Source: a phage. From it: a DNA stretch of 64,000 nt. Below the pieces are notes generated by a model. That model saw nothing but the letters and a program-made list of their open reading frames with translations. It ran no database searches and had not been told where the DNA came from. The position numbers and the translations under genes were made by a program. Positions 39,708 through 53,816 of the stretch are shown piece by piece. Each line of letters begins with the position of its first letter. Positions within the stretch are counted from its first letter, which is position 1. Location of the stretch: sequence record MZ956761.1; one strand, 5' to 3'.

Positions 39708-40404
<697 letters not shown>

Positions 40405-42088: not shown

Positions 42089-42161
42089 TGGGAATTAGCC
42101 AAGTTGGTAAGGCATAGCACTTTGACTGCTAGATGCAAAGGTTCGAGTCCTTTATTCCCAG
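42089..42161 (+). tRNA. tRNA-Gln (anticodon TTG)
   Basis: Hand-folded cloverleaf: acceptor TGGGAAT/ATTCCCA, T-loop TTCGAGT, anticodon loop CTTTGAC. Confidence 0.7.
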
Positions 42162-42162
42162 C

Positions 42163-42249
42163 GCGAGAATGGTCAAATTGGTAAAGGCACAGCACTTAAA
42201 ATGCTGCGGAATGATTTCCTTGTGGGTTCGAGTCCCACTTCTCGCACCA
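42163..42249 (+). tRNA. tRNA-Leu (anticodon TAA)
   Basis: Acceptor GCGAGAA/TTCTCGC, long variable arm, encoded CCA. Confidence 0.75.
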
Positions 42250-42254
42250 AATTT

Positions 42255-42328
<74 letters not shown>

Positions 42329-42338
42329 ATTTAATCTA

Positions 42339-42412
42339 CTCCGTGTAGCTCAGTTTGGTAGAGCGCCTGATTTGGGATCAGGAGGTCCAAGGTTCAAATC
42401 CTTGTATGGAGA
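42339..42412 (+). tRNA. tRNA-Pro (anticodon TGG)
   Basis: D-arm TAGCTCAGTTTGGTAGAGC, anticodon loop TTTGGGA, T-loop TTCAAAT. Confidence 0.7.
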
Positions 42413-42414
42413 CT

Positions 42415-42504
42415 GGAGGCGTGGCAGAGTGGTTTAATGCACCGGTCTTGAAAACCGGCAGTCGCTCCGGCGACTCATAGGTTCAAATCCTATCGCCTCC
42501 GCCA
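42415..42504 (+). tRNA. tRNA-Ser (anticodon TGA)
   Basis: Acceptor GGAGGCG/CGCCTCC, long variable arm, anticodon loop CTTGAAA, CCA. Confidence 0.75.
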
Positions 42505-42509
42505 GTTTT

Positions 42510-42585
42510 GCTGATTTAGCTCAGTAGGTAGAGCAACTCACTTGTAATGAGAAGGTCGGCGGTTCGATTCCGTCAATCAGCACCA
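42510..42585 (+). tRNA. tRNA-Thr (anticodon TGT)
   Basis: Acceptor GCTGATT/AATCAGC, anticodon loop CTTGTAA, CCA. Confidence 0.75.
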
Positions 42586-42586
42586 A

Positions 42587-42661
42587 GGCCCTGTAGCTGG
42601 AAGGTTCAAGCAAGCGACTCATAATCGCCAGATGGTGGTTCAATTCCACCCAGGGCCACCA
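42587..42661 (+). tRNA. tRNA with CAT anticodon (Ile2-type or Met)
   Basis: Acceptor GGCCCTG/CAGGGCC, anticodon loop CTCATAA, CCA. Confidence 0.65.
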
Positions 42662-42674
42662 AATTAAGAATTAA

Positions 42675-42761
42675 GGGGAGTTATCCCGTAGAGGTAGCGG
42701 TGTGGACTGTAAATCCATTGTCATTGCGACTCGGGTGGTTCGACTCCATCACTCCCCACCA
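42675..42761 (+). tRNA. tRNA-Tyr (anticodon GTA), type II
   Basis: Perfect 7-bp acceptor GGGGAGT/ACTCCCC, anticodon loop CTGTAAA, long variable arm, T-loop TTCGACT, CCA. Confidence 0.6.
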
Positions 42762-42765
42762 ATTT

Positions 42766-42840
42766 GGATGTGTAGCTCAATGGCAGAGCGATCGCCTGTT
42801 AAGCGATTGGTTATAGGTTCGAATCCTATCACGTCCGCCA
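42766..42840 (+). tRNA. tRNA-Asn (anticodon GTT)
   Basis: Acceptor GGATGTG/CACGTCC, anticodon loop CTGTTAA, T-loop TTCGAAT, CCA. Confidence 0.65.
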
Positions 42841-42954
42841 AATTTGTGACAACTGTCACATTAATATCTACTTGACGCGATTATAGGGGTTGAACTGATC
42901 ACTCTTCTCTTAATTTCGTGTGAAGACATCTTGATTGTTGGAGTAGGTATTAAT

Positions 42955-43030
42955 GTGGCCGTAGTTCAGTTGGTAGAACTCGAGATTGTGATTCTCGTAG
43001 TCATGGGTTCGACTCCCATCGGTCACCCCA
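42955..43030 (+). tRNA. tRNA-His (anticodon GTG)
   Basis: Acceptor GTGGCCG/CGGTCAC, anticodon loop TTGTGAT, T-loop TTCGACT, CCA. Confidence 0.6.
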
Positions 43031-43034
43031 ATTA

Positions 43035-43110
43035 CGGGGCATAGCTCAGAAGGAAGAGCAAGGACCTTCTAAGTCCTAGGTCGTAGGTTCGATCCCTACT
43101 GCCTCGACCA
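43035..43110 (+). tRNA. tRNA-Arg (anticodon TCT)
   Basis: D-arm TAGCTCAGAAGGAAGAGC, anticodon loop CTTCTAA, T-loop TTCGATC, CCA. Confidence 0.7.
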
Positions 43111-48381: not shown

Positions 48382-48912
<531 letters not shown>

Positions 48913-48916
48913 AGTT

Positions 48917-48946
48917 GTTTACTTTCTCCTAGAATTGTGATAGTAT
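48917..48946 (+). promoter_or_regulatory. T4-type early promoter
   Basis: GTTTAC-N18-TGaTAGTAT upstream of the internal-protein gene. Confidence 0.45.
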
Positions 48947-48983
48947 ATTCACAGTTACTAATTAAAATATTTAAAGGAAACAC

Positions 48984-49301
48984 ATGAAAACGTATAAAGA
49001 ATTTATTGCAGAATCTGCTGCAGGACAACGTGTAGAAGGCGGTTATATCTGGATTGAACAAGTTGAGCCGCCGAGTCGCACTTCTACGGGTAAATGGAAA
49101 ATCACTGTTGATGGTCCTGGTGGTAAACGTAGGACTCTTAAAGAAATTAACGGGTACTATGAAGAAGCTCTTTCTGACGCGGGTACTTATATGATGCAAA
49201 TCATGATTAAAAACCCAGAAAATCGTTTTGCGGCTAGAGTTTTCCGCCGTATTGGAAATAAGCTTTATGATGCATATTCTAAAAACTTTCCTAAAGAATA
49301 A
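48984..49301 (+). CDS. internal head protein (IPII/IPIII-type)
   Basis: 105 aa; N-terminal MKTYKEFIAE capsid-targeting tag. Confidence 0.7.
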   Translation: MKTYKEFIAESAAGQRVEGGYIWIEQVEPPSRTSTGKWKITVDGPGGKRRTLKEINGYYEEALSDAGTYMMQIMIKNPENRFAARVFRRIGNKLYDAYSKNFPKE

Positions 49302-49317
49302 AAATTAAAGGATACAC

Positions 49318-49791
49318 ATGAAAACATATCAAGAATTTATTACTGAAGCAGCTATTAATTCTCAAATTATTGCTGAATCTTTTACTGATCTTTTGAAATT
49401 TAAAAAAGGTCAAAAAATCACTGCTGTATTGGATGATGGTACAGAAGTTGAGATGGATGTACAGGGATATAATTATGCAGTAGATGGAAAACTGTATAAT
49501 AAATCTCATGCTAAATTTGATTCATTTGACGACTTTGTTAATACAGTTGAAGATGAAAAAACTCGTAGATCCATTGCAACTGGTGATGCTAAGGTTCTTA
49601 TGGCACATGGTCATGAACGCATTCGCGCTAAACAGAATAAAATGGGTGAAGATAATTTTGCATTAGTTGGTTATCAATCTGGTAAACAAACTTATGGCTA
49701 TCAGCGTACTGCTACCATGTATAACAAAAATGGTAAAATCGCTTTCGTGAATAGCAAAGGCTCTATTCAGTACGTCAAATCATTCAAATAA
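49318..49791 (+). CDS. internal head protein (IPII/IPIII-type)
   Basis: 157 aa; N-terminal MKTYQEFITE capsid-targeting tag. Confidence 0.7.
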   Translation: MKTYQEFITEAAINSQIIAESFTDLLKFKKGQKITAVLDDGTEVEMDVQGYNYAVDGKLYNKSHAKFDSFDDFVNTVEDEKTRRSIATGDAKVLMAHGHERIRAKQNKMGEDNFALVGYQSGKQTYGYQRTATMYNKNGKIAFVNSKGSIQYVKSFK

Positions 49792-49944
49792 GCAAATAAG
49801 AAATATGGGAACAAGCTGGACCTCATGATTCTATGAGGGATTCCCGCCAACCTGTAATAAGGTCGAGCCCAAGCGCGGTAATGGGTAAATACAGAAATGG
49901 ACAATTCATGCGCCATGGAATGGCCCAAATTTAGAGAGAATAAA

Positions 49945-50484
49945 ATGAGAACATTTTTAACTGGTCCTTATCTATCCCTGATGAATGCTTTTACACACCA
50001 TTCTGATGCTAGAGTAGAAGAAATTTGTAAAAACGAATATATCCCGCCATTTGAAGACTTACTCAAACAGTACTGCACACTTCGCATAGATGGTGGACGT
50101 CAATCCGGCAAATCAATTGCTGTGACTAACTTTGCTGCTAATTGGCTGTATGATGGCGGAACAGTTATTGTTCTTTCTAATACTTCAGCTTACGCTAAAA
50201 TTTCTGCAAATAACATCAAAAAGGAATTTTCGCGTTATTCTAATGATGATATACGTTTTCGTTTATTTACTGATTCTGTGCGCAGTTTTATTGGTAATAA
50301 AGGAAGCAAGTTCAGAGGTTTATCGCTTTCGCGAATTTTGTATATAATTGATGAGCCTGTCAAATCTCCTGATATGGATAAGATTTATAGTGTCCATATT
50401 GACACTGTACACTACTGCTGTAATAGTAAATGTTGCATTGGTGGTATTACTCGTCCGCAGTTTTTCGTAATCGGAATGCAATGA
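49945..50484 (+). CDS. small P-loop NTPase-like protein
   Basis: 179 aa from ATG with GAGAG SD; Walker A-like GGRQSGKS and Walker B-like ILYIIDEP. Confidence 0.5.
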   Translation: MRTFLTGPYLSLMNAFTHHSDARVEEICKNEYIPPFEDLLKQYCTLRIDGGRQSGKSIAVTNFAANWLYDGGTVIVLSNTSAYAKISANNIKKEFSRYSNDDIRFRLFTDSVRSFIGNKGSKFRGLSLSRILYIIDEPVKSPDMDKIYSVHIDTVHYCCNSKCCIGGITRPQFFVIGMQ

Positions 50485-50810
50485 TGACAGATACACAGCT
50501 TTTCGAATATCTCTATTTTTCGCCAAAAACTATTAAAAATAAATTGGTAAATCATTTTGAAATTTTGGCAAATAACAACATTTTGAGCGAATTTTATCCC
50601 AAGCAATACAAATTACAAAAAGGTGTATTCAAAGGATGCAGAGTTTTGTGCACTGCTCCTAATGCACGGCTAATGAATAAAATTCCATATTTTACCATGG
50701 AATTTATTGATGGACCTTTTAAAGGATTAATTACGCAAAGTTTAATGGCATATGATTCTGAGCCGTTTTTAATTAAAGAACAATCTTGGATAAATTTATT
50801 TTCTAATTGA
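50481..50810 (+). CDS. hypothetical protein coupled to the P-loop ORF
   Basis: About 110 aa; ATGA start/stop overlap. Confidence 0.45.
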
Positions 50811-50817
50811 GGTTTAT

Positions 50818-51180
50818 ATGAAAGCATATCAAATTCTTGAAGGCACACATAAAGGTACTATTTATTTTGAAGATGGTATTCAGGCACGAATTATTGTCTC
50901 TAAAACCTTTAAAGAGGACTCTTTTGTAGACCCAGAAATTTTCTATGGTTTGCACGCCCGTGAAATTGAAATTGAAACACAACCTACAGTTAAAATTGAA
51001 GGTGGTCAGCACCTGAACGTTAACGTTCTGCGTCGTGAAACTTTGGAAGATGCAGTTAAGCATCCGGAAAAATATCCGCAGCTGACCATCCGTGTATCCG
51101 GTTATGCAGTTCGCTTTAACTCTCTGACTCCGGAACAGCAGCGCGACGTTATCGCTCGTACCTTTACTGAGAGTCTGTAA
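50818..51180 (+). CDS. autonomous glycyl-radical cofactor (GrcA/YfiD-like; T4 Y06I type)
   Basis: 120 aa; C-terminus [29 protein letters not shown] carries the glycyl-radical motif and matches E. coli GrcA as recalled. Confidence 0.85.
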
Positions 51181-51401
51181 TGGCAAAGATAATTATTGAA
51201 GGTTCTAAAGATGTGCTAAATGCTTTCGCAGAATGGTTTAGTAATTCAGGCGAACAGCAATTTAATGAAGCGTGGAATATGGGTGATATTAGTGGAATTT
51301 ATCCTACGACAGAAATTTCTGTTCAGGGATATGGCATTCATGAACCTATTCGTTTAGTTGAATATGATTTATGTACTGGTGAGGAAGTCAAATATGATTG
51401 A
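51180..51401 (+). CDS. hypothetical small protein (vs.5 position)
   Basis: 73-aa ORF, start overlaps previous stop. Confidence 0.5.
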   Translation: MAKIIIEGSKDVLNAFAEWFSNSGEQQFNEAWNMGDISGIYPTTEISVQGYGIHEPIRLVEYDLCTGEEVKYD

Positions 51402-51660
51402 AGATATTAAAGGTTATAAGCCACATACTGAAGAGAAAATCGGTAAAGTAAATGCTATTAAAGACGCTGAAGTTCGTTTAGGACTTATCTTTGATGCTTT
51501 ATACGATGAATTTTGGGAAGCATTTGATAGCTGTGAAGATGATGAACTCGCGAAGAATTATGCCGAAAGCCTCGATCAGTTAACTATTGCTAAAACGAAA
51601 CTCAAAGAAGCCAGTATGTGGGCTTGTCGTGCAGTGTTCCAACCAGAGGAAAAATACTAA
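51394..51660 (+). CDS. hypothetical small protein (vs.4 position; candidate Acb2-type)
   Basis: 88 aa from Met of MIEDIKG with GAGGAAG SD; position corresponds to T4 vs.4 by gene counting. Confidence 0.45.
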
Positions 51661-51938
51661 TGGCTCAATTAAGTGCAGGGTTTGGTTATGAGTATTATAC
51701 TGCACCTCGTCGTGTATCTGCCGCTCCTAAGAAAATTCAAAGTCTTGATGACTTCCAGGAAGTAGTCCGTAAAGCTTTCCAAGACTATGCACGTTATCTT
51801 AAAGAAGATTCACAGGACTGTCTCGAAGAAGATGAAATTGCTTACTATGAGCAGCGTCTTGAACAGCTTAAAAACTTACATGAGGTTCGTGCAGAAGTTT
51901 CAAAGTCTATGAATAAATTGATTAGATTTAAAGAATAA
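51660..51938 (+). CDS. hypothetical small protein (vs.3 position)
   Basis: 92 aa from Met of [13 protein letters not shown] overlap. Confidence 0.5.
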
Positions 51939-51940
51939 CT

Positions 51941-51989
51941 GTTTACTTTTCCTCTTGACTGTGGTATAATTTTTCTATCAGTTAAGAGG
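51941..51989 (+). promoter_or_regulatory. T4-type early promoter with flanking inverted repeat
   Basis: GTTTAC-N18-TGgTATAAT; CCTCTTGAC/GTTAAGAGG arms around the -10. Confidence 0.55.
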
Positions 51990-51997
51990 AGAATAAC

Positions 51998-52459
51998 ATG
52001 ACTATCAATACAGAAGTTTTTATCCGTCGAAATAAGCTTCGTCGTCACTTTGAGTCGGAGTTTCGTCAAATTAACAATGAGATTCGTGAGGCATCAAAAG
52101 CAGCAGGGGTCTCATCGTTTCATCTAAAATATTCTCAGCATCTTCTTGATCGCGCAATTCAACGGGAGATTGATGAGACATATGTTTTTGAATTATTCCA
52201 TAAAATAAAAGACCATGTTTTAGAAGTTAATGAATTCCTGAGTATGCCTCCGCGTCCTGACATTGACGAGGATTTTATTGATGGGGTTGAATATCGTCCT
52301 GGACGTTTAGAAATCACAGATGGAAATCTTTGGCTTGGATTTACAGTTTGTAAACCTAATGCGAAGTTCAAAGACCCGTCACTTCAATGTAGGATGGCAA
52401 TTATCAACAGTCGTCGTTTACCAGGAAAGGCTTCTAAAGCAGTAATTAAAACTCAATGA
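51998..52459 (+). CDS. regB: RegB endoribonuclease
   Basis: 153 aa, same length as T4 RegB; own early promoter; position between the vs cluster and vs.1. Confidence 0.7.
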   Translation: MTINTEVFIRRNKLRRHFESEFRQINNEIREASKAAGVSSFHLKYSQHLLDRAIQREIDETYVFELFHKIKDHVLEVNEFLSMPPRPDIDEDFIDGVEYRPGRLEITDGNLWLGFTVCKPNAKFKDPSLQCRMAIINSRRLPGKASKAVIKTQ

Positions 52460-52466
52460 GGTAAGC

Positions 52467-53012
52467 ATGAGAAAAGCACTACTCGCTGGTCTATTGGCCA
52501 TTTCAATGATGGCACATAGCTCCGAGCATACTTTCAGTAATGTCCAACTCGATAACATGCGTTACGCGTATCAATTCGGGGAACAATTTTCTAAGGATGG
52601 AAAATATAAAACACACAAAAATATCCACAAGAGCGGATTAGGTCATATAATGGCAGCCATTTTATGGCAAGAAAGCTCTGGCGGAGTTAATTTAAAATCT
52701 AAACCAAAGCATCACGCCTACGGAATGTTCCAAAATTATTTGCCTACTATGCGAGCAAGAGTTAAGGAACTTGGTTATAATATGACCGATGCTGAAATAA
52801 AAAGAATGTTGAATAAACGATCCAATTCAGCTTCCTGGGCGTACATTGAACTTTATTATTGGTTAAATATACATAAGGGCGATATAAGAAAGGCGATATC
52901 CTCTTATAATTCGGGATGGAATGTTAAAGCAGGTTCTAAATATGCTTCTGAAGTCCTAGAAAAGGCTAATTACCTTAAAAATAATAAACTTTTGGAAATA
53001 GTAAATGACTAA
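52467..53012 (+). CDS. secreted lytic transglycosylase-like protein (SLT domain)
   Basis: 181 aa; signal peptide; SLT motifs ILWQESSGG and YGMFQ. Confidence 0.55.
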   Translation: MRKALLAGLLAISMMAHSSEHTFSNVQLDNMRYAYQFGEQFSKDGKYKTHKNIHKSGLGHIMAAILWQESSGGVNLKSKPKHHAYGMFQNYLPTMRARVKELGYNMTDAEIKRMLNKRSNSASWAYIELYYWLNIHKGDIRKAISSYNSGWNVKAGSKYASEVLEKANYLKNNKLLEIVND

Positions 53013-53352
53013 AATTTTGGTTTTATGTATAGGATTAATTTCATTTTCTGCTTCTGCGTCAGCAGATACATCATATACTGAAATTAGAGAATATGTAAAC
53101 CGCACTGCGGCAGATTATTGTGGGAAAAATAAAGCATGCCAAGCTGAATTTGCACAGAAATTAATATATGCATATAAAGACGGAGAAAGAGATAAATCAA
53201 GCAGATACAAAAACGATACATTATTAAAACGATATGCTAAAAAGTGGAATACATTAGAATGTTCAGTTGCGGAGGAGAAAGATAAAGCCGCTTGTCATTC
53301 AATGGTTGACCGTTTGGTAGATTCTTATAATCGAGGATTGAGTACTAGATGA
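53005..53352 (+). CDS. small secreted Cys-containing protein
   Basis: 115 aa; Sec-type signal peptide MTKILVLCIGLISFSASASA; four Cys. Confidence 0.5.
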   Translation: MTKILVLCIGLISFSASASADTSYTEIREYVNRTAADYCGKNKACQAEFAQKLIYAYKDGERDKSSRYKNDTLLKRYAKKWNTLECSVAEEKDKAACHSMVDRLVDSYNRGLSTR

Positions 53353-53816
53353 TTGTAAAATATATCAAGGGCGATATTGTCGCCCTTTTCGCTGAAGGTA
53401 AAAATATTGCGCATGGATGCAATTGTTTTCATACTATGGGTTCAGGCGTAGCGGGTCAATTAACCAAAGCTTTCCCTAAAATTTTGGAAGCTGATAAATT
53501 ACAGACTGAATGGGGTGATGTGACTAAACTTGGTTCTTATTCAGTCTATGAAAAATACTTTAGGACTCATAAAGCGTATTGCTTCAACCTTTATACTCAA
53601 TTTCAGCCAGGGCCAAATTTTGAGTATTCCGCTTTAATGAATTGTATGTTAGAATTAAATGAGTTTGGTGAAAATAAACTAATTAAACCTACAATCTATA
53701 TGCCTAGGATTGGTGCAGGCATAGGTAAAGGGAACTGGGATATTATTGAGGGGATTTTAGATGCATATTCCTCTAAATTAGAAATTGTGATTGTTGATTG
53801 GGAACCATTATTATGA
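53349..53816 (+). CDS. macrodomain-like protein (ADP-ribose binding/processing)
   Basis: 155 aa; N-terminal IKGDIV...IAHGCNCFHTMGSGVAGQL matches the macrodomain ligand-binding pattern. Confidence 0.55.
   Translation: MIVKYIKGDIVALFAEGKNIAHGCNCFHTMGSGVAGQLTKAFPKILEADKLQTEWGDVTKLGSYSVYEKYFRTHKAYCFNLYTQFQPGPNFEYSALMNCMLELNEFGENKLIKPTIYMPRIGAGIGKGNWDIIEGILDAYSSKLEIVIVDWEPLL

Follow-up and report, generated by a model that had tools for sequence, protein, structure and literature searches.

Three overlapping open reading frames of 73, 88 and 92 amino acids, read from the ORF list and the sequence, occupy positions 51180–51938 (759 bp) on the plus strand of the window, the whole 64-kb stretch of phage DNA under analysis (Table 1). 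The ORF list places the starts of the second frame (TTG) and the third (GTG) upstream, and the ATG codons at 51394 and 51660 were taken as the true starts; the resulting proteins of 88 and 92 aa agree with the annotation of phage RB14, whose record names the three genes vs.5, vs.4 and vs.3. Stop and start codons overlap by a single nucleotide (TAATG) at both the vs.6/vs.5 and vs.4/vs.3 junctions and by 8 nt (ATGATTGA) at the vs.5/vs.4 junction, the usual signature of translational coupling. The original prediction had described three overlapping frames of these lengths between a GrcA-like gene and regB, and the coordinates, the overlapping junctions and the flanking genes (Pfam matches in Table 1) were all borne out.

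Positions 50800–52470 of the window match Escherichia phage ADUt at 100% identity; for RB14, as for many further Tequatroviruses, the figure is ~98%. The gene order vs.8-vs.7-vs.6-vs.5-vs.4-vs.3-regB-vs.1-vs-tk.4 is the same as in T4. By sequence comparison, the window genome is a Tequatrovirus (T4-type), a close relative of T4. Phage records with an intact homolog, down to ~40–60% protein identity, number 989 for vs.5, 1238 for vs.4 and 725 for vs.3.

Table 1. Genes and sites discussed in the text, with positions in the window
Feature	Position	Strand	Description
57B = acb1	39949–40404	+	151-aa 2H-phosphoesterase; PDB 7T26/7T27, E 4.1e-62
tRNA genes	42089–43110	+	11 genes (Gln, Leu, Gly, Pro, Ser, Thr, Met, Tyr, Asn, His, Arg)
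Ip4-type internal protein gene	49318–49791	+	Directly upstream of vs.8, as in RB14
Promoter-like site	50399–50427	+	TTGACA, 17 nt, TG, AATAGT; 10/12 matches; within the 3' end of vs.8, upstream of vs.7
vs.6	50818–51180	+	GrcA-like glycyl-radical protein; Pfam Gly_radical, E 2e-18
vs.5	51180–51401	+	73-aa acidic protein, pI 4.2, conserved in T4-like phages
vs.4 = acb2	51394–51660	+	88-aa predicted cyclic-dinucleotide sponge (anti-CBASS); PDB 7UQ2, PF24729, PHROG 717
vs.3 = tadIV-1	51660–51938	+	92-aa predicted N7-cADPR sponge (anti-type IV Thoeris), long form; PDB 9WIW
Promoter-like site	51942–51970	+	TTTACT, 17 nt spacer, TG, TATAAT; ahead of regB; consensus scan
regB	51998–52459	+	Pfam RegB, E 1e-68; downstream flank of the block
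tk.4 homolog	53349–53816	+	155-aa macro-domain protein; related records: phosphatase / ADP-ribose-binding module

A crude consensus scan of the plus strand returned no promoter-like or terminator-like sites from 50428 to 51941, and the site ahead of regB, the sole promoter-like one between 50428 and regB, bounds the vs block on its downstream side. Because no promoter-like or terminator-like site separates vs.5, vs.4 and vs.3, the crude scan indicates that the three genes most likely lie on one early transcript begun upstream (around vs.8/vs.7), with coupled translation. A vs.7–vs.3 transcript might begin internally at the site within the 3' end of vs.8. An Rfam scan of 48500–53500 gave no match to known RNA elements, and this includes the G+C-rich spacer of ~100 nt behind the Ip4-type gene (49792–49896); the predicted folding of that spacer (49795–49900) is on a par with that of shuffled sequence (z = -0.12). 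Where the window and RB14 carry the Ip4-type gene, T4 has denV-ipII-ipIII. The tk.4 homolog lies 1.4 kb downstream of the predicted N7-cADPR sponge gene vs.3. T4 has eight tRNA genes, fewer than the 11 of the window.

Homology of Vs.4, Vs.3 and 57B to characterized proteins

The window Vs.4 matches the crystallized T4 Vs.4 (PDB 7UQ2) over its full length (84/88 identical; E = 1.7e-53), with weaker PDB matches to the Acb2 of Pseudomonas phage PaMx33 (p26; 8IXZ, 8H2J; E = 0.05), and is 100% identical to the RB14 protein. It carries the Pfam domain PF24729 (Acb2_Tad1_hairpin; E = 8e-20, 71.2 bits against a cut-off of 27) and belongs to PHROG 717 (E = 6e-32), the family by which Jenson et al. defined Vs.4 homologs (PMC10097602). 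The original prediction had guessed from gene position that the middle frame might be Acb2 and had proposed an alignment to the T4 protein as a check; that alignment, at 95.5% identity across all 88 residues, together with the Pfam and PHROG assignments, turns the positional guess into an identification by homology of the middle frame as Vs.4/Acb2.

The T4 Vs.4 is a cGAMP sponge, a hexamer holding three cGAMP molecules, in which the ligand is contacted by S74 and by the stacking of Y8 and F82; the substitutions Y8A and F82A weaken binding, and mutants of the hexamer interface (L29, F33, A66, A73, A77) at L29, A66, A73 and A77 abolish it (PMC10097602). The T4 protein binds 3',3'-cGAMP with a KD of ~84 nM and does not bind cA3 (PMC10312549). 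Residues Y8, T12, K23, L29, F33, L60, A66, A73, S74, A77 and F82 are unchanged in the window protein. Among these, the residues of the dinucleotide pocket (Y8, K23, S74 and F82) all stand at their T4 positions, with Y11 and K26 as PaMx33 counterparts, the latter aligning with K23. Since the T4 protein has the same interface residues, the window Vs.4 is expected to form the same hexamer, and its 95% identity to the protein used in the experiments suggests that it would bind the same ligands. Y37, A57, L60, D61 and T64, through which cA3 is proposed to be excluded, are identical to T4 as well.

The third frame extends the original prediction, which was incomplete rather than wrong: the 92-aa neighbor of Vs.4 is itself homologous to a published sponge. 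Vs.3 matches PDB 9WIW, the TadIV-1 of phage UPEC07 from Chen et al. (Nat Commun 2026; PMC13243611), with E = 2.3e-38, and is identical to the T4 Vs.3 at 89 of 92 positions (96.7%) and to the RB14 Vs.3 at all of them. In T4, vs.3 encodes TadIV-1, and a phage deleted for it becomes sensitive to type IV Thoeris; two-helix hairpins pair into a dimer with a pocket formed by the flexible N-terminal loop, and the protein sequesters N7-cADPR with a KD of ~216 nM and releases the signal intact (PMC13243611). Active homologs are only of the long form (>80 aa, about 90), while the short form (~70 aa) is inactive, and in the T4 protein binding relies on R17, R18 and K24 (PMC13243611). The window Vs.3 is of the long form, its N-terminal 25 residues aligning with those of T4 Vs.3, in contrast to the homolog of Mosigvirus PHB12, which is a short form. 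It retains R17, R18 and K24/K25, as well as K48, E49 and H74, of which K48 and H74 are the counterparts of the basic patch. Homology thus assigns the third frame to Vs.3, the long form of TadIV-1, and the 97% identity to the T4 protein used in experiments makes N7-cADPR its probable ligand. Subthreshold matches of Vs.3 to Tex_N (Pfam, E = 0.0015, below the cut-off) and to Cas11f (PADLOC, E = 0.005) were put down to noise from coiled helices. The name 'Endoribonuclease' inherited by the PDB entry 9WIW stands on a TadIV-1 homolog.

Elsewhere in the window, the 57B product matches the T4 Acb1 structures (Table 1) and bears HxT motifs at residues 43 (HST) and 112 (HIT), so that the earlier description of an Acb1-type protein with two such motifs holds; 57B is by homology Acb1 and is predicted to cleave cyclic oligonucleotides. 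The expected pair of anti-CBASS functions is likewise supported, with both Acb1 and Acb2 identified in the window by homology. The published primer for the T4 Sequestin gene (Y16O) was searched for in the window, a weak test, and gave no match.

Vs.5 and its entry in the T4 reference

The first protein of the block carries 13 D/E against 4 K/R residues, and its family match is only to PHROG 1986 (labelled 'unknown function'; full length, E = 4e-43). All 989 phage records bearing vs.5 are T4-like and infect Enterobacteriaceae, and among 1.84 billion representatives an exhaustive HMMER search found just 6 hits. The motifs WFSxSGEQ, GY and VEY are invariant, and the predicted model consists of a helix and a beta-hairpin. 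Compared with solved structures, the model gave no fold match, and in BFVD it matched only uncharacterized T4-like phage proteins. Searches of Pfam, NCBIfam, PADLOC and PDB sequences returned nothing above noise (best matches SurE, E = 0.06, and a DeoD fragment, E = 0.04), and neither sequence nor fold similarity was found to Acb2, Tad1, Tad2, Acb4, Sequestin, Lockin or TadIV-1. A literature search for vs.5 retrieved only unrelated papers with a typographic 'vs. 5'.

Residues 19–30 (51233–51270; WFSNSGEQxF) resemble the core of an FG-GAP/VCBS repeat. One of the six HMMER hits, a match in seven stretches to an 895-aa FG-GAP/VCBS repeat protein that shares W-F-x-N-x-G-x-Q-x-F with Vs.5, was judged to be repeat-driven chance because the model puts the motif in a helix and not in a beta-propeller blade. 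The 163-position profile of PHROG 17468 raised the idea of Vs.5 fused to a known sponge, which was rejected, as longer homologs only add unrelated C-terminal tails; the Jiaodavirus homolog, for example, is 114 aa long.

In the T4 reference (NC_000866.4, 63381–63557), Vs.5 is annotated with a length of 58 aa, and 36 nt lie between its gene and vs.4. The window, RB14 and the re-sequenced T4 strain 147 (KJ477685.1) all have an intact 73-aa Vs.5 overlapping vs.4, and the shorter product arises because the reference lacks one base that they share (GCTTTCG-CGAGTGG). A GTA/GAT transposition nearby also distinguishes the two T4 records and suggests old sequencing errors, and the reference entry is probably wrong after residue 17. 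Being frameshifted, that entry misrepresents the PHROG 1986 family, and the unrelated 58-aa product generated by one missing base is part of the reason that Vs.5 has been overlooked.

In other genera, vs.5 holds its place in the slot more constantly than any other gene. Salmonella phage S16 retains only vs.8-vs.5-regB, with vs.7, vs.6, vs.4 and vs.3 lost; Dhakavirus WG01 has neither vs.6 nor vs.3; and in Jiaodavirus vs.5 precedes vs.6. Gene context and size make an early host-interaction or counter-defense role the best guess for Vs.5, though one of low probability. If Vs.5 were a third anti-defense or host-takeover protein, vs.5-vs.4-vs.3 would amount to a three-gene counter-defense cassette, a reading that is considered doubtful. 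Translational coupling to acb2 would suit such a role, but in most genomes vs.5 also sits beside the GrcA-like gene, and a metabolic role could be meant instead. Vs.5 is small and acidic, as are many phage inhibitors, yet in the experiments of Chen et al., in which each of Vs.3 to Vs.8 was expressed singly from the vs.8 promoter, only Vs.3 relieved type IV Thoeris (PMC13243611); Vs.5 alone gave no relief, which speaks against an anti-Thoeris role of this type. Its hold on the slot is steadier than that of its neighbors, as in S16, whereas conservation as broad and stable as this between genera is commoner among core accessory functions than among anti-defense genes. The predicted fold has no known relative, and the proposal that Vs.5 is a new kind of counter-defense or host-modulating protein, with a fold absent from solved structures, is similarly unlikely, if conceivable.

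Predicted signal sequestration and its specificity

The preferred reading, to which a probability of roughly 0.93 is assigned, is that the block is the T4-type vs.5-vs.4-vs.3 arrangement in which Vs.4 is the Acb2 sponge and Vs.3 the TadIV-1 sponge, with ligand binding by both predicted from homology. In the proposed mechanism, pockets formed between two protomers of the Vs.4 hexamer would capture 3',3'-cGAMP along with further cyclic dinucleotides, such that CBASS effectors would not be switched on; by analogy with T4 Acb2, cyclic trinucleotides should not be bound. The helical-hairpin dimer of Vs.3 would trap N7-cADPR, the product of the type IV Thoeris TIR protein, between its flexible N-terminal loop (R17, R18, K24) and helix 1, and the caspase-like effector would stay off.

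A shift in ligand specificity of the window Vs.4 or Vs.3 relative to T4 is very improbable. Members of the Acb2 family do differ in specificity (PMC12393519, PMC10312549), and the window alleles differ from T4 at four positions in Vs.4 (L44F, N46S, C50D and F52L only) and three in Vs.3 (V21A, N38K, T64E), but these substitutions fall outside every residue reported to be functional, and every pocket and interface residue is the same as in T4. The Vs.4 changes lie in a central stretch that is also variable in the Jiaodavirus and Karamvirus homologs, far in sequence from Y8, K23, S74 and F82 in the near-invariant N- and C-terminal segments. Further, the window allele is the common Tequatrovirus one, found at 100% in RB14 and at ≥99% in 64 records. 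That the three frames are chance or decayed frames without function can be set aside with near certainty, for although the different 58-aa Vs.5 of the T4 reference could suggest decay, the deletion behind it is peculiar to that record, and all three proteins are conserved across hundreds of genomes, two of them with solved structures and genetics.

The presence of tadIV-1 does not guarantee the phenotype, as phage T2 has a functional TadIV-1 and is still sensitive to type IV Thoeris (PMC13243611). Acb2, in turn, is both an asset and a liability because it is detected by Panoptes: the T4 protein also binds 2',3'-c-di-AMP and thereby triggers that system (PMC12657218).

Comparison with known systems

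As judged by homology, this single 64-kb T-even stretch would carry at least three known inhibitors of nucleotide immune signaling (Acb1, Acb2 and TadIV-1), with the acb2 and tadIV-1 sponge genes sharing a start/stop overlap. The finding itself is already known: vs.4, vs.3 and 57B are close alleles of characterized T4 proteins, the structures and mechanisms of Acb2 and TadIV-1 were published in 2023 and 2026, respectively, and the occurrence of mechanistically unrelated sponges as translationally coupled neighbors is already implicit in the T4 literature. As the functional genes are near-identical alleles of published T4 proteins, novelty is nil. There is value for annotation, in that the three product names in the ADUt record (OQ466432.1, 1169–1927), 'tail tube protein' for vs.5, 'putative exonuclease' for vs.4 and 'endoribonuclease (RegB domain-containing)' for vs.3, are all wrong.

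The closest counterparts are those of T4 itself. The T4 Vs.4/Acb2 (7UQ2; Jenson 2023, Huiting 2023, Cao 2024) has the same 88 aa and the same slot between vs.5 and vs.3, and the T4 Vs.3/TadIV-1 is also 92 aa long and also has the N-terminal loop needed for activity. The UPEC07 TadIV-1 (9WIW) is more distant, at 75% identity to the window Vs.3, and has a 9-residue loop insertion that the window protein does not share. The T4 57B/Acb1 (7T26/7T27; Hobbs et al. 2022) has both HxT motifs, and 57A and gene 1 adjoin the window 57B as they do in T4; this gene stands apart from the vs.5-vs.4-vs.3 block, lying 11 kb away and encoding what is predicted to be a signal-cleaving enzyme and not a sponge.
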